Source: Capsulimonadales bacterium (GTDB taxonomy: Bacteria > Armatimonadota > Armatimonadia > Armatimonadales > Armatimonadaceae). From it: a stretch of DNA of 64,000 bases. The notes under the pieces are model-generated. The model ran no database searches, was not told the origin of the DNA, and saw only the letters and a list, made by a program, of their open reading frames with translations. The position numbers and the translations under genes are program-made. The stretch is from NCBI GenBank assembly GCA_033762295.1, contig JANRLW010000018.1, positions 1-64,000 of the forward strand. Reading direction: 5' to 3'. Positions 1,484 through 39,512 of this stretch are shown piece by piece (position 1 is the first letter of the stretch; each line of letters starts with the position of its first letter).

Positions 1484-2360
1484 AGATTTTTAATGTCCTT
1501 ACTCCCGATGCACACGGCGCATTGATTTCGATACAGCGACGAGACCACCGGATCGCCTCTTCGCGACGATTCGTTTTGCGCAGGGCCATAATGAACTCAT
1601 TCCAGGTCTGGGAGACTTCTATATCGTCAATCAACTGTTGACGTTGGGTACGGTCCGTCCCGCCCCCCTTCGCCGCTCGGCGTTCCAGAATCTCCACTGC
1701 CTTGCGCAGGTGGACGAGGGCTTCCTCCGGTTGCCCTTTATTGGCCAGCAGATAGTGACCGTAGCTCTTCTGCAATCGGAACGATCCGGGATTGTTCGCG
1801 ATGCCCTCGGCCAGAAACTCGAGCGCCCGGTCCACATTCCGGTCCTTCGCGGCACAGAAGACCAGATAGGAGCCCATGTCGTACCCCTCAACGAAGTGCG
1901 GATCGGTCCAGGTCATCATTCGAAACAGCGGCAACGCCTCCGCGAGGTCGCGATGCCCATGGCGACGGATATCCATCCACGGTTGCGCTCCCCGTTCGAT
2001 ATCCCCCCAGAACGACCGCGGGTCATACTCCGACTCCGGCACGACGCTGGTCTCCTGGGAACCGTGATGATCTTCCAGGCTGTCCCCATGCGCGGCGACA
2101 CGTTTACCCTTCTGCACCTCCGACTCCGTCGCGGCGCGAAAGACGACTCCGCCGTGCATGTACTCGTGCGCCCTTCCGTAAAGGTATGAGGCGAGCGAGG
2201 TTCGAAACTCGCCCAGAATGGACGTCGTCGGTTTCTCCTCGTACACCTCTTCCGCTCCTTCCGTATCGGGTTGCCTGAGCATTTCGGGCAGGGCGGCGCG
2301 GAGTAAAAAACCGTTCAGAGCCAATAAGGCGACAGCCGGTATGGCGAAATAAAGTTTCAT
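1449..2360 (-). CDS. Membrane-anchored His-rich TPR-like protein (paralog of 7035..7988)
   Basis: N-terminal hydrophobic helix; 'HEYMHGG', 'HGDSLEDHH', 'RHGHRD'; 'DPHFVEGY'; 'ALEFLAEGIANNP' TPR-like helices. Confidence 0.75.
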   Translation of the reverse strand: MKLYFAIPAVALLALNGFLLRAALPEMLRQPDTEGAEEVYEEKPTTSILGEFRTSLASYLYGRAHEYMHGGVVFRAATESEVQKGKRVAAHGDSLEDHHGSQETSVVPESEYDPRSFWGDIERGAQPWMDIRRHGHRDLAEALPLFRMMTWTDPHFVEGYDMGSYLVFCAAKDRNVDRALEFLAEGIANNPGSFRLQKSYGHYLLANKGQPEEALVHLRKAVEILERRAAKGGGTDRTQRQQLIDDIEVSQTWNEFIMALRKTNRREEAIRWSRRCIEINAPCASGVRTLKIYGLPLPKTRSL

Positions 2361-2381
2361 GGATTCGTTGTCTCCGTTTTG

Positions 2382-3161
2382 CTAAAGAGCCATCTTCTCG
2401 AACCGATTGAGAGCCAACTTCAGCCAGAAGGCGCTAATGGCAATACCGTAGACGGTCAGAGCCAGCGGAATCCACCAGGCGATCGGGTCCCAGCCGTAAA
2501 CGACCTTCCGAGCAATATCGAAGAGCGTAAAGTGTGGCAGGAAGCCGTAAAGGATCGCGATCAGCCAGTTGAGAATCGGAACTCCGTCGCCGTAGGCCAG
2601 AAGAAACGATCGGGTGAACGCGCCCGATCCCAGAGCCAGCAACAACCCGAGCGTGAACGCTGCGGACGACGACACATAAACGGAAAGACAGATGCAAATG
2701 GCGGATAACCAGAGAAAGGACACGGCTTTCAGCCAGATATACTGGATCAGAATGACCTTGAGGGGCAGGCGGAGTAACGTCAGCACCAGCAGTGAGACTC
2801 CGAGCAAGAGGGCGAAGGAGGCCAGGGTGAGCACCCAGGACGCGACGAACTTGCCGGTCAGCAGTTGGGCGCGGGAGATGGGACGGGCAAGAAGCGGATA
2901 GATCGTCCGACGGGAAATCTCTTCCGGAATCTGGCGGGTCGCGATGGTCACCCCCAGGATCGTGGAAAAAAGCCCGACGGCGGTAAACGCCATATCCTTG
3001 ACAAAAATCTCGAGGCCGCTGACACCGAAGAAGGTAAAGGAGTACGCTCCCACCACCATCAGCACCGTCAGAATGACCAGGACATAGAGTTCCTTGCGGC
3101 GTACCATTTCCAGAAAACTGCCACGGATCAGGGTGCGCCAGACACGTAACGTAGGCGTCAT
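2382..3161 (-). CDS. ABC-2 type transporter permease (PilI/NosY-like)
   Basis: About 6 TM helices; 'IPEEISRRTIYPLLARPISRAQLLTGKF' signature. Confidence 0.88.
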   Translation of the reverse strand: MTPTLRVWRTLIRGSFLEMVRRKELYVLVILTVLMVVGAYSFTFFGVSGLEIFVKDMAFTAVGLFSTILGVTIATRQIPEEISRRTIYPLLARPISRAQLLTGKFVASWVLTLASFALLLGVSLLVLTLLRLPLKVILIQYIWLKAVSFLWLSAICICLSVYVSSSAAFTLGLLLALGSGAFTRSFLLAYGDGVPILNWLIAILYGFLPHFTLFDIARKVVYGWDPIAWWIPLALTVYGIAISAFWLKLALNRFEKMAL

Positions 3162-3982
3162 ACTACCGCCTCCTTTCTTTCGGTCTCCGTCCGAGTATCC
3201 TCCGAGGTGTCATTGTTACGATTCGATTCCGGCGCGGTCCGATGGAGCGAATCGCCTCCGGTTTCGACCAGAGTTACAAAGTAGTCCTCAAGCGAGGAGA
3301 CTTGTTTCACCAGGTCCGACACGCGGTGCTCGGCGATGAGTTTTCCCTTGTTCAGCACGATCACCCGGTCGCAGACGGTTTCCACTTCGGATAACTGGTG
3401 TGACGAGAAAAAGATCGTGGTCCCCCGGTCGCGCTCCTCATTCAAAATAACCCGGAGGTCCCGTCGTCCGATGGGGTCGAGACCCGACGAAACCTCATCG
3501 AGAATCAACAGGCGCGGGGTTGCCAGCAACGCCTGAGCGATACCCACACGCTGTTGCATTCCCTTGGATAAAGTCCGATTGAGAACATGCTCCTTGCCGC
3601 TCAGTCCGACGCGAATCAGCAGTTCGCCGATCCGATCCTTCAGAGCGTTGCCTTCCATTCCGTGGAGTTCGCCGTAGAAGGTCAGGGTTTCAAACGGGGT
3701 GAGATAGGGCGAGTAGAGAGCCGTCTCCGGCAAAAAACCGACCCGGCTCCGGGCATCCGCCTCCTGCACAGGAACATCAAACAGGGTGGCCTGTCCGGAG
3801 ACAGCGGTTTGAAAGCCCATCAGCGCCTTGATCGTGGATGTCTTCCCGGCCCCGTTCACTCCGAGGAATCCGACAATTTCCCCGGGACGAACATGGAACG
3901 ACACTCCGTCCACGGCGCGGAACGTCTCGCTCCGCGTCGTCGGGTAGGTGACGGTCAGGTTTTCGACTGCGATGGCGTACAT
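3158..3982 (-). CDS. ABC transporter ATP-binding protein
   Basis: Walker A GVNGAGKTS, signature LSKGMQQR, Walker B LILDE, H-loop SSH. Confidence 0.95.
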   Translation of the reverse strand: MYAIAVENLTVTYPTTRSETFRAVDGVSFHVRPGEIVGFLGVNGAGKTSTIKALMGFQTAVSGQATLFDVPVQEADARSRVGFLPETALYSPYLTPFETLTFYGELHGMEGNALKDRIGELLIRVGLSGKEHVLNRTLSKGMQQRVGIAQALLATPRLLILDEVSSGLDPIGRRDLRVILNEERDRGTTIFFSSHQLSEVETVCDRVIVLNKGKLIAEHRVSDLVKQVSSLEDYFVTLVETGGDSLHRTAPESNRNNDTSEDTRTETERKEAVV

Positions 3983-4357: not shown

Positions 4358-4729
4358 TCAGGCGAGGGGTGGCGCGCGTGCGGAAGTGTTCAGGAAGAGA
4401 ACGGACGGAGCGTCGGCGTGCGGCAGACACCAGTGCAGAACGAAAGTCTGTGTGATCGGGGGTTGCGGACGACCGGGCGACTCCATAGAGGCATTCAGGA
4501 GCAAGAGTTCGCAGAATGGGCACGAATCGGACGCGCCTTCCGCTGTTCCGCCTACCGACAGGGACGTACCGTCTGCCGATTCACCGGAAACGCAGGTGAC
4601 TGCGGCAACCGGATGCTCATGGGCTCGGTAGTGCAGCGTTTCTCCTACGGTGTGCAGAAAAAACAACACAAAGCCAAGCAAAAGTGCCGCTCGCTCCCGT
4701 ATTCGATTGTCACGAAAGTACCTGTTCAC
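4358..4729 (-). CDS. DUF2946/CruR-like leader protein (TM-His, CxxC, C-terminal RAPP)
   Basis: 'AALLLGFVLFFLHTVGETLHYRAHEH', 'CPFC', ends 'SARAPPLA*'; GTG at 4729 follows GGAG (alternative TTG at 4750). Confidence 0.75.
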   Translation of the reverse strand: MNRYFRDNRIRERAALLLGFVLFFLHTVGETLHYRAHEHPVAAVTCVSGESADGTSLSVGGTAEGASDSCPFCELLLLNASMESPGRPQPPITQTFVLHWCLPHADAPSVLFLNTSARAPPLA

Positions 4730-4745
4730 TATCGCCCGACTCCAC

Positions 4746-4791
4746 TGCAACTATTGCAACTATTGCAATTCACCATGGTATTATTCCATGG
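4746..4791. promoter_or_regulatory. Putative metalloregulator operator in promoter region: (TGCAACTAT)x2 + TGCAATT and CCATGG-N7-CCATGG
   Basis: TTGCAA-CTA-TTGCAA palindrome at 4754-4768 in an AT-rich intergenic region just upstream of the leader ORF. Confidence 0.5.
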
Positions 4792-4886: not shown

Positions 4887-6194
4887 TCAACCGCGGACGC
4901 AGTAGAGGTGGATGCCGGTCCGCAGGAACAATGTGCCTTCGACCGCGGCCGCTCCGTAGAGAACCGGATCGATGTTTCCCATCGCCGCCCCGCGTGATCC
5001 TGCCGGACGATTTTTCGGTGTATAGTCCTCGGACGGCGAGAGATTCTCGTCGGGAGACCAGAGCGTATTCTCGCCGATTTTTTCAAATTTCGGGCCGGTT
5101 CTGATCTGCGAGACGACCCCGTTCTTCCCGAAGAAATAGACCCGGTCGCCTACCCCGATCGGAGATCCCCAGCAGATTCCGCCGATCCGTTCCGCATACC
5201 GCTCCTCGCCGGTCATCGCATCCAGACAGTAAAGAATACCGGCGGCGGTGACATAGTAGGCGTGTCCCCGGAAGACGAACGGACTCATAAAGTCGGTCGT
5301 CGCCTTTTTGGCTTCCCAGAGCGGAACGATCTCCGGACGATCCTTCTCCGTCGTGAACCGGAAACAGGCGTTGGATCCCTGCGGCGTACGTCCTCCCGGT
5401 CTCGCCAGATCGCGCTGCGCCGTGGTCGCGCCGATATACAGGCGATCCTCATCCACGAACGGAGAGGACATGATATTTCCCGTGTAGCCCGGAAGGCGCT
5501 TCCATAACGTGCCGGTGACGGCATCGTAGGCGTCCACGGCACCGTTGGAACTCACAATCACGAGTTCCCGTCCGCCCATTTCGACGCAGATCGGACTCGT
5601 CCAGCTTTTGCGCGGCTCCCGATCGGTTTTCCAGCGGGTCTTTCCGGTTCGTCGGTCCAGAGCCAGCAGGTACGACGGCCCCTGATGATCGACCAGTACG
5701 ACGACGGCATCGCGGGTCAGGGTCGGAGAACCGCCCAGACCGTACTCGTTGACCAATGGTCCGTATTCCCGTACCAGCGAGCGCTTCCAGGCGATACGGC
5801 CATCTTTGGGCGAAAGGCGCACAATGTCGCCGCTCTCAAACGAGCAGTAGAGTCCGTCCTGATCCAGGCAGGGAGTCGGTGCGGCCCGGCTCACCAGGTA
5901 ATGGCTCTCGGTCGGAAACGTGGAAGCGATCTGCTGGCTCCAGAGCAACCGCCCGTCGCGCGCCGAAAAGGCAAGCGCCAGACAGTCCTCCCGTTGCGCT
6001 CCGCGGACGGCGCTGACGAACACACGGTCGCGCCAGACAACCGGGCAGGATTGGCCGTAACCGGGAAGGCTGACCCGCCACGCAATGCCCCGGGTCGGCG
6101 ACCATCGCTCGGGCAATCGCTTCAGATCGGCATGACCGACTCCGCCGTTGCGGAACGCCGTCCAGCGATCGCCCGGCAGTTTGCGCAGCGTCAC
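4887..6194 (-). CDS. PQQ-like/BamB-like beta-propeller protein
   Basis: Repeated 'ALD..TGK..WK', 'GYGQSCPVVWRDRVFV', 'SSPFV', ends 'LFLRTGIHLYCV'. Confidence 0.85.
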   Translation of the reverse strand: MTLRKLPGDRWTAFRNGGVGHADLKRLPERWSPTRGIAWRVSLPGYGQSCPVVWRDRVFVSAVRGAQREDCLALAFSARDGRLLWSQQIASTFPTESHYLVSRAAPTPCLDQDGLYCSFESGDIVRLSPKDGRIAWKRSLVREYGPLVNEYGLGGSPTLTRDAVVVLVDHQGPSYLLALDRRTGKTRWKTDREPRKSWTSPICVEMGGRELVIVSSNGAVDAYDAVTGTLWKRLPGYTGNIMSSPFVDEDRLYIGATTAQRDLARPGGRTPQGSNACFRFTTEKDRPEIVPLWEAKKATTDFMSPFVFRGHAYYVTAAGILYCLDAMTGEERYAERIGGICWGSPIGVGDRVYFFGKNGVVSQIRTGPKFEKIGENTLWSPDENLSPSEDYTPKNRPAGSRGAAMGNIDPVLYGAAAVEGTLFLRTGIHLYCVRG

Positions 6195-7007
6195 CTACGG
6201 CCGTCCTTTCCCGTTGTAGAACGTGTCGTCGATGACGCCCGTTCCGGCAAGAAAACCAAGCCGGGCGTTCCGAATCACCGCGGCATTGGCGATACCGGTG
6301 GGCGTCCTTACCGAAAACGTCTTGACATGACCGTCCGCAAAGGCGACGTTGGCCTTTTCCAGGTGCCGGGCATGGACCGTCGGAGTGGCTCCGCCCCGGC
6401 TGGAAGGCGGCCAGGCCCAGGGATGGAGAGTGGGACGATTTTCGACCGTGTTCCAGAGGGCGTTGTTGCAGAAAACCAGCATATCCGCCGGCGTCTCGAT
6501 GGCGGCCAGAGCGGCGGGGTTCTGCGTCCATCCCGGTTGCGGTCCGCCCGGGTGGGCGAAGGTTCCGTACCCTCCCAGATAGCAGACATTGTAACCGTAA
6601 TGCACCTTACCCCAGAGGTTGCTGAAGGGCAATCCGGAGGCCGCCGGGTCACCGAGAAGGGACGCATTCTTCAGGTAAGGCCAGAGCAGACCATGCTGTT
6701 CCCCGAGGTCGGGCGCGGAACCGAAGGTCGTGCCCGAACGGACGGCCGCATACCAGTAGACCACACGGGAACCCGCGGTCAGGGACGTTTGCAGTCCGGT
6801 CGGAAGCACCGTTTCATCATAGTCCTGCGCGTACATGAGCCATCCCAGAGCGATCTGCTTCAGGTTGGACAGGTCAGAGGTCTGTCGGGCTTTGGCGCGG
6901 GCCTGAGCGAAGACCGGGAAAAGGATCGCGGCCAGTATCGCGATGATTGCGATGACGACGAGCAACTCGATGAGCGTAAAGCCCCTGCGGGCCGGTGTAT
7001 AAGACAT
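6195..7007 (-). CDS. Prepilin-type N-terminal cleavage/methylation protein, DUF1559-like, with H-X9-DG motif
   Basis: [29 protein letters not shown]; '[15 protein letters not shown]'. Confidence 0.92.
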
Positions 7008-7034
7008 TTTTCGATCCTTTCGGAAGAAGACGGA

Positions 7035-7988
7035 TTAATCGGTTCCATTTTGCGTTTTGAGGAGAGTCACGCCGCTCGTTCCTTTCGGTAGCGGTTCGCC
7101 GACGGACTCCAAATACTTTCGGCACGTGACGTCCTCAGGGAAGTCGGTTAGGCCTTCCAATGCCGCTTGCCGGGCTTTGTACGGTTGTTTCATCTCCCGG
7201 TAGCCAATGACGCGGCGGCGGACGCACTCCTGCCACGCCTCCCGTTCATCGGCAATGAGCGTCTCCGGGTCCCGTGCCCTGGCGATGTGGATGCCTCGCT
7301 CCGCATGACGAACGGCCTCCGCATAGTTATCTTTGCCGTTGAAGTAACTGGCACGCATGTAAAGGTAAGAAAAGGTACTTTGAATCTCGATGCTCTCCGG
7401 GTTGTTGATTTCGCCTTCTCGAATGAATCGGATGGCTTCGTCAAACGCCTTTTCCTGATGGGCAATCATCATGGCTCCGACGGCATAGCCCGGGATGAAG
7501 TGCGGATTGCTCCACGTCATCAGGCGAAACAGGGGAAGGGCCTCTTTCGGGTCTCGATGAGAATGGTTTCGCATATCCAGGTACGGCTTCACGTCCCGCT
7601 CGATATCTCCCAGAACTCCGCGCCAGTCATTTTCTTTGGCAAGTACGATGGTTGTTTCCGTCGCGTGCTGGCGATGGCCTTTCTCCGATTCGTCGCCGGC
7701 ATGACCGATACGTTGCGTCTGTTGATGACGCTTTTCTTCCTCGGTAAGCCCACGCAAATCCACACCGCTATGGAGGTATTTGTCGACCTTCATCCAGAGG
7801 AAGTCCGCCATATTGGAACGGAACTGCCCGAACAAGGAGGCGGCAGCGACCTCCTCCAACTTGGTCTGCTGGGCCTTCGTCATACCGACAGGCGCCGCGA
7901 GGTCCGGTTTGACGATCTGAGCCAGCCGGTGGTTTAACAGAAGACCACCGGTAATCAGCAAAGGGAGGACCACCACAAACATCCTCAT
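7035..7988 (-). CDS. Membrane-anchored His-rich TPR-like protein (paralog of 1449..2360)
   Basis: Start MRMFVVVLPLL, ATG overlapping the permease stop (ATGA); 'YLHSGV', 'GHRQH', 'NHSHRDPKEALPLFRLMTWSNPHF'. Confidence 0.75.
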   Translation of the reverse strand: MRMFVVVLPLLITGGLLLNHRLAQIVKPDLAAPVGMTKAQQTKLEEVAAASLFGQFRSNMADFLWMKVDKYLHSGVDLRGLTEEEKRHQQTQRIGHAGDESEKGHRQHATETTIVLAKENDWRGVLGDIERDVKPYLDMRNHSHRDPKEALPLFRLMTWSNPHFIPGYAVGAMMIAHQEKAFDEAIRFIREGEINNPESIEIQSTFSYLYMRASYFNGKDNYAEAVRHAERGIHIARARDPETLIADEREAWQECVRRRVIGYREMKQPYKARQAALEGLTDFPEDVTCRKYLESVGEPLPKGTSGVTLLKTQNGTD

Positions 7989-8773
7989 AGTGCTTGCCTC
8001 CGAAATCGTATTGCGCCGACCATCAGAAAAATCGCGCTGTGAACGACGGCATAGATCAGGAGCAGCAGGACGGTGGTACCGGAAATCGGTTTCCATCCGT
8101 AACTGACCTTTTTCGAAAGGTCGAACAGGTCCAGTTGCGGCAAGGTGAAGTAGGCGACTTCCAGTCCCTTCCGGACCGCACTGCCAACCGAACCGTGCAA
8201 CATCGTTACGGCGGTGGAGAAGGTTGAGGAACCGATGGCGAGAAGCAAAGCCATCGTGGCGGTCGCCTGCGGCGTGAGAAAAAGCGAGAGGGCGATTGTC
8301 AGCGCGCAGATAATAGCGAGCGAGAAGAACCGCAAGAGCAGGTACTGCCAGAAAATGGCTCCGACGCCAAGGCCAAAATACAGTAAGGCTCCCCATCCGA
8401 TCACGGTAAATGTTAGGAGGGATATCGTGGAAAGAGTTAATGCCCCCAGGAACTTACCGAAAATAAGGTCGAACCGGGTCACCGGGCGAGCCAGTAACGG
8501 ATATATGGTGCGGCGGGAGATCTCCTCGGGCATCTGCCGTGCCGCGAAGAGAACGGCAAGAATTACCGAGAGAATGTTAACAACGGTCAGGGTGACGTCT
8601 TTGAGAAACATCTCCAGGCCACGAACGCCGAAGTGACCGATGACCGATGCCGCGCCAATCATCACTACCGCCAGGATAGCGGCGACCCACAGGTCCTTGC
8701 GTCGGATGGATTCCAGAACCGCCGTATAGGCCAGTGCCCCCCAGACGGTAAGTTTGAAAAGAAAAATGTTCAC
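7985..8773 (-). CDS. ABC-2 type transporter permease
   Basis: Multi-TM; 'MPEEISRRTIYPLLARPVTRFDLIFGKF'. Confidence 0.88.
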   Translation of the reverse strand: MNIFLFKLTVWGALAYTAVLESIRRKDLWVAAILAVVMIGAASVIGHFGVRGLEMFLKDVTLTVVNILSVILAVLFAARQMPEEISRRTIYPLLARPVTRFDLIFGKFLGALTLSTISLLTFTVIGWGALLYFGLGVGAIFWQYLLLRFFSLAIICALTIALSLFLTPQATATMALLLAIGSSTFSTAVTMLHGSVGSAVRKGLEVAYFTLPQLDLFDLSKKVSYGWKPISGTTVLLLLIYAVVHSAIFLMVGAIRFRRQAL

Positions 8774-9564
8774 GGGTTATTTTCCTTTGCGTATTGTTCT
8801 TCGGCCTGCTGGATGGTGGTAATAAAGTAGTTTTCCAGTGCGGACCCGATTCCCTGACGAAACCGGTCATCTACCGGACGTTCATCCTGCTTTCTTCCGC
8901 CGTGAATCAGGATGACCCGGTCGCAGAGTTGTGCAACCTCATCAAGTTCATGGGAGGAGAGAAAGATCGTGGTTCCTCCGGAGCGCACATCCGCCAGTAT
9001 CTCGCGCAGGTGGCGGCGACCGATCGGGTCAACGCCGGAGGTTACCTCATCCAGCACCAGAAGGTCGGGGTTGCCCAGAAGCGCCTGTGCGATTCCCAGG
9101 CGTTGCTGCATCCCTTTGGAAAAAGTACGGAGCGGCTGTTTTTCTTTCCCCCCCAATCCGACCAGATTGAGAAGGCGATAGGACTCGTCTCGGAGAGCCT
9201 TCCCCCCCAGGCGTTGCAGTTTCCCGTAAAGCCAGAGCGTCTCCATCGGCGTCAGGAAAGGGTAGTAGAGAGCGACTTCGGGAAGGTAGCCGATTTTGCT
9301 GTTGGCGGCAGGCGTCCCGGCAGGCTCGTCGAAGACCCGAATCGTTCCGGAATCCGGAGTAAGGAACCCCATAACGGCCTTGATGGTTGAGGATTTTCCT
9401 GCCCCGTTCGGCCCGAGAAACCCAACCACCTCGCCGGCTTGCACCTCCAGGGAGAGGTCCTCCACCACTCGTCGTTTCGGTTTCATCGGCCCCGTCGAAT
9501 AGGAAACGTTGAGGTTGTCGAGCGAAAGTGCCGTTGCCGTTTGCGATCGCATTCCGGTCGTCAT
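8770..9564 (-). CDS. ABC transporter ATP-binding protein
   Basis: GPNGAGKSS, FSKGMQQR, LVLDE, SSH; start uncertain (9564 or 9552). Confidence 0.93.
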   Translation of the reverse strand: MTTGMRSQTATALSLDNLNVSYSTGPMKPKRRVVEDLSLEVQAGEVVGFLGPNGAGKSSTIKAVMGFLTPDSGTIRVFDEPAGTPAANSKIGYLPEVALYYPFLTPMETLWLYGKLQRLGGKALRDESYRLLNLVGLGGKEKQPLRTFSKGMQQRLGIAQALLGNPDLLVLDEVTSGVDPIGRRHLREILADVRSGGTTIFLSSHELDEVAQLCDRVILIHGGRKQDERPVDDRFRQGIGSALENYFITTIQQAEEQYAKENNP

Positions 9565-9720
9565 AAAGAATTCCGACAACCGACCGGAATTCGCCGGTGA
9601 AACCGCATCGGTACCATCAGGTGCATAACAGCCGGACATTTCCGTTCCTTTTCGAGCGATACGAGAGAGTGGGTTCAAGTGAACCGATGGAGATACGTTG
9701 CCGTCGCAGGTCGCAGGGTA

Positions 9721-9749
9721 TCCCGTGGAGGCGGACAGCCTCCACGGGA
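9721..9749. other. Strong intergenic hairpin between the PEP-CTERM gene and the ABC module
   Basis: tcccgtggaggc-ggaca-gcctccacggga, 12-bp perfect stem, no U-tract. Confidence 0.55.
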
Positions 9750-9798
9750 CACCGGACAATCCGTGACATCGGTCGATGTCAGCGGACATCGGATGACA

Positions 9799-10656
9799 TT
9801 AACCGACTTGCTTTCGTCGTCGGGCGACTACCGCACCGACCAGTCCGAGGCCGAGCAAAGCGAACGTTCCGGGTTCCGGAGCCGCCGCCTGCAACAGGGT
9901 GGTCCCCACCCCGAACGTATAGGTCACCAGTCCGCTGGTGGACGGTCCGCCGTCCGTCGGCGTTCCGATCGCCTCGATCGTCACCTCATAAATCCCGGCC
10001 GACGAGAAGCCGAAATTGTAGTGGTCGTGCGCCCCGACCGAGACATTGATCAGGTCGGTGTTGTCGAAGCCGTTGTTGCTCTGCCAGAGAACGCTGATCC
10101 CGCCCAGAGACCCCGGCTGCCAGACGGCGAAATTTCCGATGGTCGATCCTCCGACAACCGGCGTAAATTCCAGATTACGCAGGAATAGTTGAATACCGCC
10201 CGAAAAGTCGCCCGGAGCATTCTCCTCCGCGCCAATCCCTACCCAGGAGATGTTGTCGTCTGCCGGGTTGGCGTTGCTCTGCGGATTCCCCTGCGGAATC
10301 AGAAAGATTTCGTCCCCGGAATTGACCCCCAGAAACGCCAGCGCCGCGGGAGTGGTAACCCGCGCGCCGTCTCCGACATAGATCAACGCGTCCTCCGGAG
10401 CGTATTCGTCGTCGAACCCGGCGGGCGCCGGATCGAGATGAATGTGCAGATCCCAGGAGCCGGGGCTGCCGACGGAGCCGGTCTCATAGGCAACGCCGAT
10501 ATCCAGGTGGGTGAAGATGTCGGCATTGCTGATCGGGTCCTTACCGAGGACGGTGTAGCCGGGGTTGAGCTGGGCCTGCGCGGCAGACGAGAGTAGAGCG
10601 AGCGTGGCAAGCGCCGTCAGTCGGATGGCGTGTTGCCGGGATAGTTGCGAGAACAT
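9799..10656 (-). CDS. PEP-CTERM surface protein with choice-of-anchor M (TIGR03769-like) domain
   Basis: Signal peptide AQA; 'HLDIG', 'LHIH', 'AFLG..SGDEIFLIPQ', 'WVGIGAE', 'GAHDHYNFGFSSAGIYEVT'; C-terminal APEPGTFALLGLGLVGAVVARRRK. Confidence 0.85.
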   Translation of the reverse strand: MFSQLSRQHAIRLTALATLALLSSAAQAQLNPGYTVLGKDPISNADIFTHLDIGVAYETGSVGSPGSWDLHIHLDPAPAGFDDEYAPEDALIYVGDGARVTTPAALAFLGVNSGDEIFLIPQGNPQSNANPADDNISWVGIGAEENAPGDFSGGIQLFLRNLEFTPVVGGSTIGNFAVWQPGSLGGISVLWQSNNGFDNTDLINVSVGAHDHYNFGFSSAGIYEVTIEAIGTPTDGGPSTSGLVTYTFGVGTTLLQAAAPEPGTFALLGLGLVGAVVARRRKQVG

Positions 10657-10783
10657 GGTCTTTCCTCCGTTTTCCAAAAGCATCCGTCAGGTCAAAAGAG
10701 ACGATCGCAATTTTGCGACTTTTGAGATGGTTACAAGTGCGACTCCGCCAATCGAGCCGATCTCTCGACGATCTCTCGACGAT

Positions 10784-11548
10784 CTACAGGGGCGGTTTGG
10801 CGAAGTTGAATCCGGAATCCGACCAGCCTTTGATTCGGGCGGCGGGAATCGCTTTGACGTGCGTATCGCAGTACAGATAGTTCGCAACACCGCCGCGTTC
10901 GGGAGCGTTCCCGGACTGACCGTGTCGATCCACTTCTATCTCCGATGTGATGAAACGCCATCGGGCCACCGGGTCCCGATAGCCGAACCAGGCCGCGCTG
11001 TGAACGTGGTCCCAGTAGGTATCGCGCGGTTTGGCATCGCTCAGTTCGAAGAGGAGAAATGTTTCCGAAGGCCGTGGCACCTGATCGAGGCTCGTGATGA
11101 TATCCGGAGAGGCGATAATCGCGCCCGTGAACGGGTCCCGTGACTTGATCGCGACATACTCGTTCATGACATAGCTGGTTCCGTTGAATCCGCGTACCTC
11201 CTGCCCGCGCAGATCGCTCGGACACAGGCGAATGGCATGCACGTTGGCGACATAAGGAGCCAGAGCCAGAACCCAGACCACCGGTTGCCCCCGGTAGTCA
11301 TGCGCGGTACGAGGTAATTCTCCATCGAAATCATCACTGTACATTCGAAGGGCGATACCGATCTGCCGCATGTTGCTCACACAGGAGGTCTGTCGCCCCT
11401 TCTCCCGTGCCGCCGCGAAGGTGGGTAACAGAATCGCGGCCAGTATCGCGATTATGGCGATGACGACGAGCAGTTCGATCAGCGTGAATCCGCCCGTTGT
11501 CGCCGGTCGGACCGTCCGGATCGATCCGACGGTTGCATATGGTCTCAT
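10784..11548 (-). CDS. Prepilin-type/DUF1559-like protein
   Basis: [25 protein letters not shown]; 'CVSNMRQIG'; '[10 protein letters not shown]'; '[11 protein letters not shown]'. Confidence 0.9.
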
Positions 11549-11584
11549 GACCGACCTCTTTCGTTCCTTTCGTTGAAGACGCAT

Positions 11585-12109
11585 TTATCGCCCGCCCTTC
11601 TTTTCCGTCTGATGGGCGACTTTGTCGAACGCATGGATCGCTTTGTCGAGGGATTCCATCTCCGTGTCCAGGGCGTGCATCCGCTTATCGAGCGTCGCCG
11701 CCTGCGCCTGACGCTGCTTCGCATTCATCCGGTGATACGCCTTGTCGAACGCATGAAACTCGCGATCGATCCGGTGAAACCGGGCGTCGAGCGAATGAAA
11801 GGCTTTGTCCTGCCCGGAGGATTTCGGGTTCTTCCGGTCGTAGACTTTGTCCATCGCATGGAACGACTTTTCCGTTCGATGGAACCGCTGTTCGAGTCGG
11901 TGGAACGATTTATCGAGCGCGGCGGCAGAAAGGCGGGACGGTTGCCGGTGGTACGCCTGATCGGCCTTATGGAAGTCGGCATCTTCCTTATGCAGGGTTT
12001 TATCTCCCTGATGGAAGGTCTTGTCACCGGGCGTCTGCGCCACGACGGACATCGGCGACCCGATAAGGGTCGTCGCCAAAAGCATCAGCCAGGCCGACTT
12101 GATGGTCAT
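11585..12109 (-). CDS. Secreted His/Asp heptad-repeat helical protein, unknown family
   Basis: SD AAGGAG; signal peptide ending VVA|Q; 16 heptads approximating D/E-x-x-F-H-x-x, 14 His. Confidence 0.8.
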   Translation of the reverse strand: MTIKSAWLMLLATTLIGSPMSVVAQTPGDKTFHQGDKTLHKEDADFHKADQAYHRQPSRLSAAALDKSFHRLEQRFHRTEKSFHAMDKVYDRKNPKSSGQDKAFHSLDARFHRIDREFHAFDKAYHRMNAKQRQAQAATLDKRMHALDTEMESLDKAIHAFDKVAHQTEKKGGR

Positions 12110-12358
12110 CGGTTACTCCTTATGCAAAATGATTGAAAAATAGTGCGGTTGACGGAGACAGGTACTGTGCGACCCACTTCCGGCGGGTTCCGGTCCGCCG
12201 CCCTTCCGATCGCCCCCGTCCGGGCCGTCGCCCGATGCCGTCGCCGGCAGAAGCGGGATCGAACGCCGTTAAGGAAGGTCGTATGTGTCGGAAAGACGGA
12301 CTGCGTCAGGAACGCTCAATAAGGAAGGTTGGCAGGACAGGGGAACGCAGGAAGGCGT

Positions 12359-12802
12359 TCAGGCGAGGGCGGGAGGGCCACGAGAGGCGGAGTGACGGAC
12401 GAGCGTCCGCAGACAGGGGAGGAAGGCGGCGAACGGAGCGGAGTCCGTCAGGAACGCGGTCACCGCAGCCGTCAGGGTAACGACGGCGACAACCGCCAGC
12501 AACGCTTCGAGTTCGCAGACCCAGCAGGCATGCGGAGCGGACAACACTTCCGTTATCGGGGAGAGAGCGGAGGCGGGAGAAACCACCCCTGCCGTTCCGT
12601 CGGATGCCGCAACCGGGCTTTCGTGAACCGACCGGTCTTGCCGGTCCGTTCGGGAATGCGTCGGTGCGGTCCGTCCCGGAAGTTCATGCGTCAGACCGTG
12701 GAAGATCGCGCCGGTGACATGCATCCCGAGGAGCAACAGTCCCATAAGAAGAGACAGTCGCCCCCGAAATTGAGATCGCAAATTGGTCCGGCCTGTGGTC
12801 AC
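12359..12802 (-). CDS. DUF2946/CruR-like leader protein (TM-His, CxxC, C-terminal RGPP)
   Basis: 'LSLLMGLLLLGMHVTGAIFHGLTHE', 'HACWVC', ends 'SASRGPPALA*'; GTG lies 6 nt after TATAAT. Confidence 0.75.
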   Translation of the reverse strand: MTTGRTNLRSQFRGRLSLLMGLLLLGMHVTGAIFHGLTHELPGRTAPTHSRTDRQDRSVHESPVAASDGTAGVVSPASALSPITEVLSAPHACWVCELEALLAVVAVVTLTAAVTAFLTDSAPFAAFLPCLRTLVRHSASRGPPALA

Positions 12803-12808
12803 ATTTGT

Positions 12809-12849
12809 ATTATAGCCATGGGGCGTCAAAATCTGCAACTGATTTTCCA
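12809..12849 (-). promoter_or_regulatory. Sigma70-like promoter (TTGCAG-N18-TATAAT) overlapped by a possible Fur/Zur-like box
   Basis: Minus strand: TGGAAAATCAGTTGCAG...TATAAT-acaaat-GTG. Confidence 0.55.
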
Positions 12850-12901
12850 TAAGCGGGAGAAGGGGCCGAGGGGGAAGGGACGGCGGAAAAAGAGGGGGAA
12901 A

Positions 12902-12973
12902 AGCGGGAGACGGGACTCGAACCCGCGACATTCTGCTTGGGAAGCAGACGCTCTACCACTGAACTACTCCCGC
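12902..12973 (-). tRNA. tRNA-Gly (CCC), 3' CCA not encoded
   Basis: GCGGGAGTAGTTCAGTGGTAGAGCGTCTGCTTCCCAAGCAGAATGTCGCGGGTTCGAGTCCCGTCTCCCGCT; cloverleaf with anticodon loop TTCCCAA. Confidence 0.96.
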
Positions 12974-13040
12974 GATAGGCGTATTGTATCGCCGGTTCGT
13001 CCGGGCCGCAAATCCGGGGGGCTTACCGGCTTACCCGGAC

Positions 13041-13820
13041 TTACCCGCGCAGCAACGGGGTCAGGTCGAATTCGTAGACCGTGCGCTCCCGACGCTGAAT
13101 CTGGAACAGGCGGCGCGTCCGGGCATCGATCGCCAGGCCCTGCCCCTCCGCCGGCGATTTGACGATCTTCAGCAGTTCGAGCACCGTGCCCGCACGCGGC
13201 AGACGGAAGATATAGAACTCCGGCGCATGGTGGGTCGTGACATACAGCACCGGGCGCGGATACCAGGAACCGCCCGGCCCCCAGACGCCGCCCGACGCCG
13301 TCATGCCGTCCCAGCGCGCCGTGACCAGATCGGGCGGGAAAGAGTACGCGCCCTGCTTGCGCCACTCCCGGTCGTAACGCACCAGTGTCGTCAACGTGTT
13401 CGGTTTGCCCGGTTCGCCCCCGCGACCGTTGTAGTGACCGAAACAGATCCACCAGCTGTTGTCGTGCCAGTCCACCCAGACCATCGAACCGGCATCGTGA
13501 CCGAAACTGTGGCTCCGGATGTGCCGGAGCGACCCGCAGTCGTAGATCTCCACCGAACTGAGCATCGGAACGTCGGGGAAGTTGGAGTGGGAACAGTACA
13601 GTTTCCCACCCAGCGTCATCCCGCCATCCATATGAATCAGGGGAATCTCCGGCGTGCTCTTGAACGCGCCGACCTTACGTCCGGTGTTCCGCTCGTACTT
13701 GCCGATGGCGGTATTGTTGATCGCGTAGAAGTAACGGTCGTCGACCGCCACCCCCTGGATCGCCTCCTCCGCGCGAAATTTCGCGACCAACGGCAGTTCC
13801 GGCGTCAGTTCCTGTCTCAC
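13041..13820 (-). CDS. Conserved hypothetical protein, probable beta-propeller
   Basis: 'QGVAVD', 'LYCSHSNFP', 'SGGVWGP', 'GQGLAID'; coding-like bias. Confidence 0.7.
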   Translation of the reverse strand: MRQELTPELPLVAKFRAEEAIQGVAVDDRYFYAINNTAIGKYERNTGRKVGAFKSTPEIPLIHMDGGMTLGGKLYCSHSNFPDVPMLSSVEIYDCGSLRHIRSHSFGHDAGSMVWVDWHDNSWWICFGHYNGRGGEPGKPNTLTTLVRYDREWRKQGAYSFPPDLVTARWDGMTASGGVWGPGGSWYPRPVLYVTTHHAPEFYIFRLPRAGTVLELLKIVKSPAEGQGLAIDARTRRLFQIQRRERTVYEFDLTPLLRG

Positions 13821-13849
13821 CGCGATTCCCCCGATCCTTTCCTCACCGA

Positions 13850-14785
13850 TTACGGATAGACGACGCCGCCGATCTGCGGATTCCAGAGATCCTTCTGACC
13901 GGAGCTGCAGTTGAAGTTCTCGAAGTTCGGCACGCAGACGTTTTCCCAGACCTGCGGATTGACAACCGCGAACTCGTCATCGATATCGCGCGTCCAGGTG
14001 GAACCCGGCCGCATCGCCTTCACATGACCGTCGCAGAAGAGGAACGTGGAAACCGTGCGCCCGGAGTGCAGACCGACCGGGAATCCGATCGTGAACGGCG
14101 GGCGGCTGGAGGTTCCGGCGGTACGGCGGTGAAGCGGCGCGCCGTTCCGGTTGGTCGCGCCGGCGTTCGCCGCGTCGGTGCGCTGCGATCCTTCGTACAG
14201 CAGGATCAGGCTGGCCGGTTCCGGCGTCAGGTCGGTATTGATTCCGGATGCGAAGCTGTCCGGCTGGACCGGCGTCGGGTTGACCACGTTGGTGACGTAG
14301 GTGCCCGGATGGGTCGCCCGGAGGTAGTCGTTCATGATGAACGAGCGCTGGCGGTCGACGCCCGGCACGGCCACGCCGAGGTTGGTACCGGTGAACGGAA
14401 GCGCCGACGGACAGGAGTACATATTGGCCGCCGAACTGACCCGGTCGCTCGAACGGACATACGGGAAGATACCGCCCGCCGCAACCGTCGCGGAGCCGCC
14501 CTGGATCCAGCCGGTCTGCGGGTTGCCACCGCTCTGGATATTGGTGCCGCCGCCGGGGCAGGGGAAGACGCCGTCATAGTCGGTCGCATACATCAGGAAC
14601 GCCAGGCCCAGCTGCTTCTGGTTGGACGTACAGGTCGCCTGCCGCGCCTTCTCACGAGCCTGGGCGAATACCGGGAAAAGAATGGCCGCCAGAATGGCGA
14701 TGATCGCGATTACCACGAGCAACTCGATCAACGTAAAGCCGGAGCTTACCCGCAGGGTAAATCCGCGAACGGAGGAACGAATCAT
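13850..14785 (-). CDS. Prepilin-type/DUF1559-like protein
   Basis: [34 protein letters not shown]; 'FLFCDGHVK'. Confidence 0.92.
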
Positions 14786-15103
14786 TGCTTACTTGCTTCC
14801 TTCCGATATATTAATAACCACAACATCATACCCCCGAAACCGCTTGTGAATGTTAAGACAAAATTAAATCTTTTCTTCACCCTTTTCTCCGATGGGAAAA
14901 CGGTCGAAATTCGTCTTCCGGAAGGAAAAACAAAAGTTTGATACAATCTACCGAAGATCGGTCATGACCAGCCTTTATGACGCCCGCCGCCACCCCCGCC
15001 TCCGTCCGTTCCGCCGTCCCCCTGCAAAAACCGACGGGCGGCACTCCCCGACGTGCGTGTCGCACCATCGGACAGGTATAATCTGCCGGGAACTTTCCTG
15101 CTA

Positions 15104-16819
15104 ATGTTAACCGAGCTTTCCGTCGAAAACTTCGCCCTGGTAGAAAAACTCCGCCTCTCCTTCGGACCCGGGCTGAACCTGCTGACCGGCGAGACCGGAG
15201 CGGGCAAATCCATCCTGCTCGACGCCCTGGGCATGGCGCTGGGAGAACGAACCGGCGGGGATTCGGTCCGGCACGGCGCGGACCGCGCCCGGGTCGAAGC
15301 CGTCTTCGCCGTGGACGAGCAGGATACCCGGTTGCTCGACGCCCTTCGCCAGGCGGGGATCGAACCGGAGGACGGTCTGCTCCTGCTCTCCCGTGAACTG
15401 ACCGCCGCCGGCAAGAGTTCGGTCCGGATCAACGGACGACCCGCGACCGTCAGCATGCTCAAATCCCTGGGCGATGTCCTGGTCGATATCCACGGACAGC
15501 ACGAACACCAATCGCTGCTCGCCGTCGAACGACACGGCGATATTCTCGACGCCTGGTGCGGCCCGGAAGCCGCCGCCCTGAAAGCCAGTGTCGCCGCCGC
15601 TCACGCCGACGCACAGGCCGCCGCAAGAGAGCTGGCCGCCCTCCGTCAGGATGCGCGGGAGCGGGCGCGGACGCTCGATCTTCTCGCCTTCCAGCGGGAT
15701 GAGATCGATAACGCCGACCCGAAGCCCGAGGAGGAGGAGACGCTGGCCGGCGAACGATCGCGGCTCGCCAATGCCGAGCGGCTGCATTCGGCGGCGTCCG
15801 GGGCGTATGCCGCCCTCTATGGCGGCGCGGCCGGCAACGCTCGTGGAGGACGCGGCGGTAAGATGACCCTCGCCGCCGAAGGCGGCGGAGCGCTCGATGC
15901 CCTGTCCACCGCCGTTTCCGAGATCGAACACGCCGTCCGACTCGACGAACGCCTGGCAACGCTCCTCGAATCACTGCAAAACGCCCTGTATGCCGCCGAG
16001 GATGCCGCCCGCGAGGTTCGAGACTACCGCGACGGCATCGAGTTCAATCCGCAACGCCTGGAAGAGATCGAGAACCGGCTCGATCTCCTGAAGACGCTCA
16101 AACGCAAATACGGTGACACCGTCGCCGACGTCCTCCGTTACCGGCAGGAGATCGGCGAACGACTGGAAACCCTCGAAAACGCCGAGGAACGGATCGCCGT
16201 TCTGGAGGAGACCGTCGCCCGCACGACCGAGGCGCTCCGCGAACGGGCCGCCCGCCTGACCGAGGCGCGGAAGGCCGCGGCGGAACCGTTCGCCGCGGCC
16301 ATCATGAAGGAACTCGCCGATCTCGCCATGACCGCCACCCGGTTCGCCGTCGCCGTCGAGCCGCGAGAACCCCAGGCGAACGGCGCGGATCGTGTCGAAT
16401 TCCTGATCTCCCCCAACCCCGGCGTTCCGCTGAAACCTCTGGCGAAGATCGCGTCCGGCGGCGAACTTTCCCGTGTCATGCTGGCGATGAAATCGGTACT
16501 CTCCCGGATTGACGCCGTCCCGACGCTCATCTTCGACGAGATCGATACCGGCATCGGCGGACGGACCGGGACCGTTCTGGGCGAGAAACTTGCGGCCCTG
16601 TCGCGGAACGCCCAGATTCTTTGCATCACCCACCTTGCCCAGATCGCCGCCCAGGGCGACCGGCACTTCTTTATCGAAAAACGAACCGAGGAAAGCCGGA
16701 CGCGGGTCCGTGTCAGCCTGCTGGACGCCGAGGAGCGCGTTCGCGAGATCGCCCGTATGCTTGGCGACGCGGACACCGAGTCCGCCGTCGAATACGCCCG
16801 TCGTATGCTCACCAAATAG
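15104..16819 (+). CDS. recN: DNA repair protein RecN
   Basis: MLTELSVENFALV, TGETGAGKS, IHGQHEHQ, ASGGELSR, LIFDEIDTGIGG, ITHLAQIAA. Confidence 0.97.
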   Translation: MLTELSVENFALVEKLRLSFGPGLNLLTGETGAGKSILLDALGMALGERTGGDSVRHGADRARVEAVFAVDEQDTRLLDALRQAGIEPEDGLLLLSRELTAAGKSSVRINGRPATVSMLKSLGDVLVDIHGQHEHQSLLAVERHGDILDAWCGPEAAALKASVAAAHADAQAAARELAALRQDARERARTLDLLAFQRDEIDNADPKPEEEETLAGERSRLANAERLHSAASGAYAALYGGAAGNARGGRGGKMTLAAEGGGALDALSTAVSEIEHAVRLDERLATLLESLQNALYAAEDAAREVRDYRDGIEFNPQRLEEIENRLDLLKTLKRKYGDTVADVLRYRQEIGERLETLENAEERIAVLEETVARTTEALRERAARLTEARKAAAEPFAAAIMKELADLAMTATRFAVAVEPREPQANGADRVEFLISPNPGVPLKPLAKIASGGELSRVMLAMKSVLSRIDAVPTLIFDEIDTGIGGRTGTVLGEKLAALSRNAQILCITHLAQIAAQGDRHFFIEKRTEESRTRVRVSLLDAEERVREIARMLGDADTESAVEYARRMLTK

Positions 16820-38658: not shown

Positions 38659-39471
38659 ATGCGCTTCGGAATCGGCTCCTACACGTACGCCTGGGCGATC
38701 GGCGTCCCGGGATTCCCCGCGCCACCCAATCCGCTGGATGCCTTTCGCCTGCTGGACAGAACGGTAGGATTCGGCCTGTCGGTCGTTCAAATCTGCGATA
38801 ATCTTCCCCTGACGGACCTTGCCGAACGCGACCTGCAGGCGTTCGCGGAACGCGCTTTTTCCGCCGGAGTCCATATCGAGATCGGGACACGGGGAATCGA
38901 CGAGACCAACCTCCGACAATATCTGGCGCTGGCGCGGCGTTTCCGCTCTCCGTTCGTACGCGTGGTCATCGACAGGGGAAGCGACGAACCGTCGCCCGAG
39001 GAGACCGTTCGTCGTCTGCGTCCGCTGGTCGCCGCCTTCGCCGCCGAAAACGTCGTCCTCGCTCTGGAAAATCACGACCGGTTCCCCGCCGACATCCTGG
39101 CGGATATCGTGGAGCGGTTGGGGCCGGAAACGGTGGGCATCTGTCTGGATACCGTCAACTCCTTCGGTTCGCTGGAGGGTCCGGACGTGGTCATTCCGAC
39201 CCTCGCGCCGTACGCGGTCAATCTGCATATCAAGGATTTCAGCATTCGTCGCGCAACCCACAACATGGGATTTCTGATCGAGGGCCAACCCGCCGGTCAG
39301 GGACGATTGAACATCCCGGAACTCCTCACCAGCCTTCCGAAATGCCAGACCGCCATCCTGGAACTCTGGACGCCGTACCAGGAAACGATCGCCCGGACCG
39401 TCGCTCTCGAAGCGCAATGGGCGGATGAAAGCGTCATCTACCTGAAAAGTCTCCTCCCGTCACCGGCGTGA
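38659..39471 (+). CDS. Xylose-isomerase-like TIM barrel, probable 3-oxo-isoapionate decarboxylase (OiaC-like)
   Basis: 'IEIGTRG', 'LENHD', 'CLDTVNS', 'LHIKDF'; specific function inferred from context. Confidence 0.65.
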   Translation: MRFGIGSYTYAWAIGVPGFPAPPNPLDAFRLLDRTVGFGLSVVQICDNLPLTDLAERDLQAFAERAFSAGVHIEIGTRGIDETNLRQYLALARRFRSPFVRVVIDRGSDEPSPEETVRRLRPLVAAFAAENVVLALENHDRFPADILADIVERLGPETVGICLDTVNSFGSLEGPDVVIPTLAPYAVNLHIKDFSIRRATHNMGFLIEGQPAGQGRLNIPELLTSLPKCQTAILELWTPYQETIARTVALEAQWADESVIYLKSLLPSPA

Positions 39472-39512
39472 CGGTAGGAAAAACCCGCGATATACTGCGA
39501 CAGGCACGAACG

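Follow-up and report, generated by a model that had tools for sequence, protein, structure and literature searches.

The heptad gene and its locus

The DNA analysed here, which we call the window, is a stretch of 64,000 nucleotides (nt) from a Capsulimonadales bacterium of the phylum Armatimonadota (assembly GCA_033762295.1, contig JANRLW010000018.1, positions 1 to 64,000). Its minus strand carries a gene, hereafter the heptad gene, for a small protein with a predicted signal peptide, whose mature part is built of 16 heptads D-[KR]-x-Phi-H-x-x in four blocks of four. This is the first structural gene behind a leader open reading frame (ORF) of the CruR-like type. The features of the locus are collected in Table 1.

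Table 1. Features of the heptad locus in the window, with the RNA element found in related loci.
Feature	Positions	Strand	Basis or remark
tRNA-Gly	12902-12973		upstream of the leader ORF and the promoter-like site
Promoter-like site TTGCAG - 18 nt - TATAAT	12809..12838	minus	by eye; just 3' of tRNA-Gly
CruR/DUF2946-like upstream (leader) ORF	12359..12781	minus	start codon uncertain (12745-12802)
Spacer from leader ORF to heptad gene, 249 nt	12110..12358	minus	
Shine-Dalgarno sequence AAGGAG	12116..12121	minus	6 nt 5' of the heptad gene ATG
Heptad gene (secreted His/Asp heptad protein), 174 amino acids (aa)	11585..12109	minus	ORF and translation; including stop codon
Signal peptide, residues 1-25	12035..12109	minus	translation by eye; Sec-type; predicted cut after V-V-A, before Q
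Heptad block 1 = helix 1, residues 29-56	11942..12025	minus	position 7 non-hydrophobic (G, E, A, Q)
Heptad block 2 = helix 2, residues 66-93	11831..11914	minus	fourth heptad with Asp instead of His
Heptad block 3 = helix 3, residues 101-128	11726..11809	minus	
Heptad block 4 = helix 4, residues 141-168	11606..11689	minus	second heptad with Glu instead of His
Prepilin-type DUF1559 (SBP_bac_10) gene	10784..11584	minus	ATG abuts the heptad gene TAA
Choice-of-anchor M / TIGR03769-domain protein with PEP-CTERM anchor	9799..10683	minus	
ABC ATPase	8770-9789	minus	longest ORF
ABC-2 permease	7985-8773	minus	
TPR-like protein with His-rich stretches	7035-7976	minus	
Second DUF1559 gene	6195-7007	minus	
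PQQ-like beta-propeller	4887-6194	minus	
Two-hairpin RNA copies in related loci	L020:7998-8107; L022:8823-8933; L026:9311-9423	plus; minus; minus	six other aligned loci also carry it

A first-pass annotation, made from the letters of this DNA, had listed four blocks of four heptads after a signal peptide, and the translation yields exactly those 16. Its description of the His residues was also confirmed, as all 14 are located at i+4 from an Asp or Glu ([DE]xxxH) and, counted by eye, 12 of the 14 are followed by an Asp or Glu at i+3. When the mature sequence was shuffled, the [DE]xxxH motif occurred 2.1 times on average and 9 times at most, and none of 20,000 shuffles reached the observed 14. 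The strong Shine-Dalgarno sequence and the secretion proposed in that annotation also held: AAGGAG precedes the ATG, and the N-terminus of the translation reads as a Sec signal peptide, with a comparable hydrophobic N-terminus in all 15 aligned members of the family.

This family was defined by a signal peptide followed by blocks of four D-[KR]-x-Phi-H-x-x heptads joined by short linkers, a description that the window protein fits. Matches at E <= 0.01 were found in 14 of 61 related genomes, that of the window counted, with no paralog in the latter. The family profile matched 17 of 401 Armatimonadota genomes, which comprised 3 of the 23 genomes of the window's family (the window besides), 12 of the 18 of one genus in a sister family and one weak match elsewhere, in genome G091 (E 1e-6), which was dropped as a member because no ORF with at least four motifs was present there. 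All 14 loci from the species-genome collection fall in Armatimonadota, Armatimonadales or Capsulimonadaceae.

Broader searches added few sequences. An exhaustive phmmer search of 1.84 billion representative proteins gave 45 matches at E <= 1e-3; among the 12 of these that were examined, which do not include the top match (P0001, 1344 aa), only P0005 and P0009 shared the heptad architecture, and the other ten were rejected as low-complexity eukaryote-like repeats or D-K-R-F-D heptad coiled coils without His or signal peptide. The family profile retrieved four short unnamed proteins from a set of 5.8 billion protein clusters, and no named member was found in a collection of 15 billion proteins. 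A word-indexed protein search with the window protein as single query returned 78 candidates, none of them at E <= 0.01, and a metagenome scan for four-block patterns gave 185 pattern matches, none of which was confirmed.

Known families were not recovered either. The heptad protein gave 14 Pfam matches at E <= 1, all of them coiled-coil noise under the cut-off (best, 18.3 bits vs. a cut-off of 40), and three NCBIfam matches to coiled coils, all sub-threshold; the periplasmic copper proteins PCuAC, CopC, YcnI and Sco were absent from both sets. One chance match (E 0.23) was obtained when the family profile was run against PDB sequences, and Foldseek searches with both AlphaFold models described below gave none at E <= 1e-3. 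A limited literature search found no description of an Asp-x3-His heptad periplasmic protein. The first-pass annotation had recognised no family for this protein, a statement that these searches uphold, and the match to a known non-metal family that it had named as evidence to the contrary did not appear in Pfam, NCBIfam, PDB or Foldseek. The heptad proteins thus appear to constitute a new small family restricted to Armatimonadota, without name, structure or literature.

Two forms of the protein exist. Four-block forms of about 170 aa were found in the window, in the related genomes G012 and G008 and, interrupted, in G023, whereas two-block forms of about 100 aa belong to one genus of the Capsulimonadaceae. 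The family alignment used below consists of 15 sequences, namely the window, G012 and G008 proteins plus 12 two-block forms. Within the window protein, the first half can be aligned collinearly to the second, with 42% identity over 64 residues, and the second half aligns along an entire two-block protein, for which reason the four-block form is best read as a tandem duplication of a two-helix unit.

In G023 the heptad gene is split by an insertion sequence of 1199 bp (L019:7955-9153) with terminal inverted repeats and a DDE-transposase-like ORF, whose GC content is 0.48 compared to 0.56 for the locus. Many of the two-block proteins (e.g. P0005, P0009 and those of L011-L014) carry, by prediction, a His among the first four residues after the signal peptide (X-H or X-X-H, with cut sites judged by eye); N-terminal patterns of this kind bind Cu(II) and Ni(II) tightly.

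An ORF of 187 aa on the opposite strand (11573-12136, plus) is fully open across the heptad gene, so it had to be considered whether the heptad repeat is non-coding or this antisense ORF is the real gene. The antisense frame is indeed open over its full length in the window and equally so in six of the seven homologs checked (L009: 91 of 104 aa). Nevertheless, the GC content at third codon positions (GC3) is 0.75 in the sense frame, with neighbouring genes at 0.67-0.75, vs. 0.60 in the antisense frame, and the comparison with the G012 homolog gave 65, 56 and 107 differences at sense codon positions 1, 2 and 3, respectively. Because GC3 resembles that of the neighbours and third-position differences dominate, the sense frame of 11585-12109 is, on codon statistics, the coding frame. 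The signal peptide, the Shine-Dalgarno sequence, the operon orientation and a protein identity of 26-50% across two bacterial families also speak against the antisense alternative, which we regard as extremely unlikely. The antisense ORF is a by-product of codon composition, and gene callers might wrongly choose it over the heptad gene.

Conservation of the Asp and His positions

In the 15-member alignment, the columns that are invariant or at least 90% conserved are the Asp and His of the heptads. Position 1 was D, E or H in 140 of 141 aligned heptads and position 5 was H, D or E in 139 of 141, whereas position 4, hydrophobic in 130 of 141, varied among F, Y, L and A, and position 7 was hydrophobic in only 37 of 137. 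Lys or Arg occupied position 2 in 116 of 141. The two window heptads without His, numbers 8 (Asp) and 14 (Glu), have their counterparts in the intact four-block homologs G012 and G008, where heptad 8 is also Asp and heptad 14 is Glu or Asp. There is no Cys in the mature window protein or in any of the 15 members, and Met residues are few. That positions 1 and 5 are near-invariant while the hydrophobic positions vary argues for selection acting on the ligand-type pair rather than on the core.

The same periodicity could be read without any metal, as that of a periplasmic helical protein, either a chaperone or adaptor like Spy or CpxP or a binder of anionic ligands through Arg/Lys-His faces, in which the Asp-His pairs would only stabilise helices or act as a pH switch. 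Asp-His pairs at i/i+4 do stabilise helices and could serve that end here; in addition, the conserved Lys or Arg of position 2 would render the helices near-neutral and zwitterionic, the fold matches described below are generic coiled-coil bundles only, and the G008 copy lacks a metal context. However, for pairs that serve only as structural salt bridges one would rarely expect both partners to be 99% conserved next to a core position open to F, Y, L and A; the His of four-block forms is exchanged only for Asp or Glu, never for Lys, Arg or Gln; and metal-related and CruR-type contexts recur in two families. Moreover, the translation has no LTXXQ motif and gave no Pfam match at E <= 1 to CpxP/Spy/ZraP or Metal_resist. 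CpxP, Spy, ZraP and CnrX are periplasmic helical hairpins, and ZraP and CnrX bind metals via His and Glu. The heptad protein is, like them, a small exported alpha-helical envelope protein, but they were not among its listed fold matches and its periodic ladder contrasts with their one or few sites. Considering both sides, a role unrelated to metals seems quite unlikely.

Fold and placement of the His/Asp stripe

The structure was predicted with AlphaFold2, which gave a predicted local distance difference test (pLDDT) score of 73 without alignment and of 81.7 with the family alignment, the latter with a predicted template modelling (pTM) score of 0.63. The predicted helices (residues 28-55, 62-93, 98-127 and 130-172) correspond to one per heptad block; pLDDT is mostly above 90 in helices 2-4, whereas helix 1 is less confident (about 71-81). 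The best structural matches, PDB entries 9rgv and 9rgz, are de novo designed antiparallel three-helix coiled coils that match residues 61-174 (Z 10.7, root-mean-square deviation 2.2 over 96 residues; Foldseek TM score 0.72-0.75 by target). Fold matches are thus confined to helices 2-4, which resemble a compact three-helix bundle with antiparallel packing. The best score of the VIA exhaustive structure search was Z 11.6, also for residues 61-174, where helical bundles ordinarily reach about 13 according to the tool, and the ESM Atlas gave a best feature score of 0.79 and, by structure, generic helical matches only. The designed coiled coils share a strict heptad regularity with the protein, and the likeness shows a common arrangement, not kinship.

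On helical wheels, the hydrophobic moment falls on position 4 (F/Y/L/M) and position 7 (L/M/F/I). The His stripe is straight at 3.5 residues per turn and lies 112-148 degrees off this hydrophobic face, with Asp/Glu at 38-102 degrees. Because the His/Asp stripes are off the hydrophobic face, the putative ligands are placed on the flank or outside of the helices and not in a core, and by this register the core is one of Phe, Tyr and Leu. The ladders of neighbouring helices may face each other.

This arrangement departs from the first-pass annotation, which had envisaged a four-helix bundle resembling the Csp copper-storage proteins, with a His/Asp-lined interior storing many ions. In favour of that idea there are four helices of equal length and 30 potential ligands at positions 1 and 5. 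On the other hand, positions 4 and 7 form the core, with the His stripe well away from it; in the models, helices 2-4 form a three-helix bundle of the usual hydrophobic kind and helix 1 is predicted less confidently; and there is no Cys and no match to any Csp family or, at E <= 1 in Pfam, to ferritin-like families. In Csp proteins the ligands are Cys residues that line the core and bind Cu(I), and Csp1 is exported. The heptad protein shares with Csp1 and Csp3 a helical bundle, here a predicted one, with many regularly spaced putative ligands, and with Csp1 its export, but differs in its lack of Cys, its flank Asp/His and its Phe/Tyr/Leu core. It is also unlike the ferritin-like ExxH di-metal bundles, as its motifs are [DE]xxxH and HxxD. 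A Csp-like storage core is therefore very unlikely. The AlphaFold model that the annotation had anticipated, a four-helix bundle with converging His and Asp, was obtained in part: four helices were predicted, but only helices 2-4 match a bundle and the stripe runs along the flank.

A CruR-like leader ORF precedes the heptad gene

The leader ORF encodes, in this order, an Arg-rich N-terminus, a hydrophobic anchor of about 18 residues that contains His (judged by eye from the translation), CWVC, 44 residues, RGPP, three residues and the stop. In the DUF2946/CruR family, which includes copper-sensing arrest peptides, CruR and CutF sense copper through their Cys motif (PMC9426467, PMC9973294). In the published signature, CxxC and RAPP are 45 +/- 1-2 residues apart, the stop follows the arrest motif after about three residues, and the ORF leads its operon, with a long C-rich spacer behind it (PMC9426467); RGPP is reported to arrest translation at least as well as RAPP (PMC12992588). 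The leader ORF is like CruR (Bp2923) and CutF in its N-terminal anchor, its CxxC, the 44-residue spacing, the three residues between motif and stop, its place at the head of the operon and the long spacer. It is unlike them in having RGPP for RAPP, in a Pfam score under the cut-off and in its cargo, which is the heptad gene, DUF1559 and ABC-2 genes vs. a TonB-dependent transporter and PepSY_TM.

A search of the 5.16-Mb genome for CxxC-44-RGPP-type signatures gave three copies, all in the window (12359, minus; 4358, minus; 39771, plus), and none in a reversed-sequence control. The spacing in these copies is 44, 44 and 46 (the last counted by hand), and it is 44 in all five copies measured in the Capsulimonadaceae genus (g14). 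The three window ORFs (12359-12781, minus; 4358-4750, minus; 39468-39941, plus) share CxxC, 44-46 residues, RAPP or RGPP, two or three residues and the stop, and they head distinct operons: the heptad gene with DUF1559 and ABC-2 genes; an ABC ATPase with ABC-2, TPR-like and DUF58 genes; and a HupE_UreJ-like gene with DUF1559. The paralog at 4358-4750 scored 21.2 bits against PF11162 (DUF2946). Above-cut-off DUF2946 genes were detected in 4 of the 61 related genomes, and the one in G008 closes with RGPP and three further residues.

Predicted folding of the spacer was no stronger than that of shuffled sequences (z = +0.65). Over its first 120 nt or so, C is abundant and G scarce (24 C vs. 10-11 G per 60 nt), which is suggestive of the C>G, rut-like region of CruR operons. 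A riboswitch was considered as the leader and rejected, as Rfam (E <= 1, positions 9000-16000) gave only the tRNA-Gly and a chance miRNA match. Thus, the annotated statement that the heptad gene is the first after a metal-type leader needs correcting: the leader, by motif of the copper-sensing type, is a coding ORF followed by the spacer and not a riboswitch.

A scan of 11400-13100 with promoter and terminator consensus sequences returned nothing, and the -35 hexamer of the promoter-like site fits at only three of six positions. Directly 5' of the Shine-Dalgarno sequence there is an AT-rich stretch (12122-12141, minus) with two copies of ATTTT[TG]CA, in surroundings of about 60% GC, which is a possible operator. 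The upstream regions in G008 and G012 are also AT-rich with TTGCA-containing repeats, and that of G008 has an 8-bp inverted repeat.

Gene neighbourhoods in the window and its relatives

Downstream of the ABC-2 permease in the window, the genes of 4887..7976 lie on the same strand and may form one transcription unit with the heptad operon. Genes for a heme-copper oxidase and for a single TonB receptor are located elsewhere in this genome.

In the Capsulimonadaceae genus, the order is a CruR-like ORF, a TonB-dependent receptor, a conserved RNA element, the heptad gene, sometimes HupE_UreJ_2, an ABC-2 permease and a DUF4139-like protein of about 690 aa. Pfam was run on three loci of this genus for the receptor and the permease, and on two for a ZIP gene; the latter (ZupT-like, sub-threshold) was seen adjacent and divergently oriented in both. 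HupE_UreJ_2 follows the heptad gene in G043. Of 14 two-block loci scanned, 11 have a CxxC-44-RAPP-3 ORF upstream in the same orientation, and the other three are at a contig edge or lack an upstream flank. Among the four-block relatives, G023 has a CruR-like ORF 2.6 kb upstream, shares with the window the DUF1559 and PQQ-propeller genes on the downstream side, and gave a weak TRASH/YHS-like match, and G012 has an HMA-domain protein (MerP/CopZ-like, sub-threshold) directly upstream of the heptad gene.

Several other elements were observed in these loci. The window holds two paralogous cassettes (1449-3982 and 7035-9789, both minus) of an ABC ATPase, an ABC-2 permease and a TPR-like protein, with both TPR-like proteins His-rich. 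DUF1559 / H-X9-DG pilin-like genes are present in CruR-like operons at 10784-11584 (minus), 6195-7007 (minus) and about 41430-42215 (plus), and in G023 at L019:9452-10249, which hints at a metal-related role for this pilin-like family. A small membrane ORF with C-P-x-C-G-x-x-x-C-P and no Pfam match adjoins the heptad gene in several Capsulimonadaceae loci (L028:7780-8184, plus; L044, about 250-500, plus; and, upstream of the gene, L026 and L027). In G008, the class II ribonucleotide reductase gene upstream of the heptad gene (L018:912-5390, plus) carries a LAGLIDADG domain, which suggests an intein.

The RNA element of the Capsulimonadaceae genus is about 110 nt long, has two hairpins and lies between the stop of the TonB receptor and the heptad gene, or the small ORF before it. 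Compensatory changes were found at 14 of 28 predicted pairs, and no Rfam family matched. Its model R1 found copies in two further genomes, and it is single-copy in four of five complete genomes, and a truncated version was seen in the fifth; neither the window (best E 0.92) nor its genome gave a match. It is a candidate for a new cis-regulatory or processing element.

Discussion

The above results support a role in metal handling for the heptad protein, as indicated by two independent lines, the near-invariant Asp and His and the metal-related neighbourhoods. The first-pass annotation had also proposed a metal role, and this part of it was reinforced by the conserved Asp/His, the CruR-type leader and the TonB receptor, ZIP, HupE/UreJ and HMA neighbours, in contrast to its Csp-like core. 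Judged from sequence, our favoured reading, to which we give a probability of about one half, is that the heptad protein binds Cu(II) in the periplasm, as a chaperone or buffer. Copper is the most likely metal because a CruR-type leader ORF is followed by the heptad gene as first structural gene; Cu(II) is preferred to Cu(I) because there is no Cys and Met is scarce; and a place as periplasmic acceptor or buffer in uptake is suggested because the gene stands behind a TonB receptor in the sister family. What the analysis shows is the anatomy, the pattern of conservation, the predicted helices, the operon contexts and the signature of the leader; that the protein binds metal, that this metal is copper, which way the operon is regulated and who the partners are, we infer.

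In such a mechanism, Sec would export an all-alpha protein to the periplasm, where residues at position 4 (Phe/Tyr/Leu) would pack the helices together, joined in helices 2-4 by those at position 7. A straight alternating ladder Asp(i)-His(i+4)-Asp(i+7) would run down the flank of each helix and offer a divalent transition metal a row of exchangeable sites, weak to moderate in strength. Asp/His pairs of a single helix would make up part of each site, and the rest would come from a neighbouring helix, a second molecule or water. The task of the protein would be to accept, escort or buffer the metal on its way from entry at the outer membrane to the inner-membrane transporters. Metal sites designed from His at i/i+4 on helices exist.

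Some observations weigh against this reading. The leader ORF is under the cut-off of PF11162 (14.5 vs. 23.7 bits, E 0.062), and profile-profile alignment (hhalign) of the leader ORFs with three above-cut-off DUF2946 genes of relatives covered 12 columns around CxxC with a probability of 22%; consequently, the CruR assignment rests on motif architecture, and the ORF is CruR-like by its motifs and not a Pfam member. The C-G excess of the spacer, 13-14 per 60 nt, is under the window's 99th percentile of 15 (background standard deviation 6.2). In the locus DNA examined, G008 and G012 have no CruR-like ORF, and G008 has no metal gene nearby. The TonB receptors of the Capsulimonadaceae genus match no NCBIfam copper-receptor model. 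The conserved Lys/Arg at position 2 stands beside the proposed ligands and is unfavourable for cation binding, unless it serves as second shell or tunes affinity. Finally, His and Asp without Met or Cys suit Zn, Ni and Co as well as Cu(II), and the neighbouring ZIP and HupE/UreJ genes belong to families known classically for the transport of Zn and of Ni/Co.

The last points are also those on which a variant of the reading is built, in which architecture and action are the same and the metal is zinc, nickel or cobalt. Besides the His-plus-carboxylate ligand set and the ZIP and HupE_UreJ_2 neighbours, it can call on the DUF2946-like proteins such as CzcI that precede Co/Zn/Cd efflux genes (PMC9973294) and on the DUF2946 genes in an expression table of a Caulobacter Zur study (PMC4176598). 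In contrast, the two experimentally studied members of the leader family, CruR and CutF, sense copper (PMC9426467, PMC9973294); CzcI-type members lack the C-terminal Pro motif, which the window leader ORF has; and the HMA-domain protein of G012 and the weak TRASH/YHS-like match of G023 also point away from these metals. We hold this variant to be unlikely.

Regarding control, the leader is, by its motifs, a known kind of switch, and the heptad protein behind it, by its profile, a new family. CutF, a DUF2946-like protein, senses periplasmic copper co-translationally and switches its downstream gene on (PMC9973294), so the direction of control cannot be read from sequence.

The favoured Cu(II) reading can be carried further, tentatively, to a metal ladder in which the flank Asp/His stripes would bind a row of Cu(II) and hand ions from the outer-membrane receptor to the inner-membrane transporters. 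Such a protein would, in its coordination architecture, be unlike any characterised metallochaperone or storage protein, would have arisen in Armatimonadota and would be switched by a nascent-peptide copper sensor, with two-block forms that fold or dimerise only on metal. We consider this extended version possible but doubtful.

Chaperones of the PCuAC, CopC, YcnI and Sco type are beta-rich, with one or two defined sites. Hpn is a cytosolic His-rich metal buffer, multi-ion, Cys-containing and irregular, which the heptad protein resembles in having many His in a small size but not in being exported, Cys-free and strictly periodic. PCuAC, CopC, YcnI and Sco are the periplasmic copper chaperones of operons headed by CruR or CutF (PMC9426467, PMC12992588), and small RAPP/RGPP ORFs are enriched upstream of TonB receptor, YcnI, PCuAC and PepSY genes (PMC12992588). 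By analogy, the heptad protein would fill the slot of these chaperones, though unrelated in sequence and fold. Like them it is small, exported, placed behind a CxxC...RAPP/RGPP leader and beside TonB receptors and transporters, and presumed to be a metal acceptor; unlike them it is all-helical, with up to 30 putative Asp/His ligands and no Met/Cys sites.

Little is known of the passage of copper and other metals through the periplasm once TonB-dependent import has brought them in. The chaperones of CruR-type operons are usually beta-rich and single-site, and here their slot is taken by a helical protein that looks designed, with as many as 30 Asp/His residues at regular intervals. Should it prove to bind metal, bioinorganic chemists and protein designers would have in it a new natural scaffold for multi-site Cu(II)/Zn(II) coordination, and copper acquisition would gain a new component. 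The passage of PMC9426467 that names phyla with DUF2946 does not list Armatimonadota. The locus would extend the CruR/RGPP arrest-peptide switch to this phylum and to new cargo, namely the heptad protein, DUF1559 pilin-like proteins, HupE-like permeases and ABC-2 systems, and it may offer a first functional handle on the large DUF1559 family.

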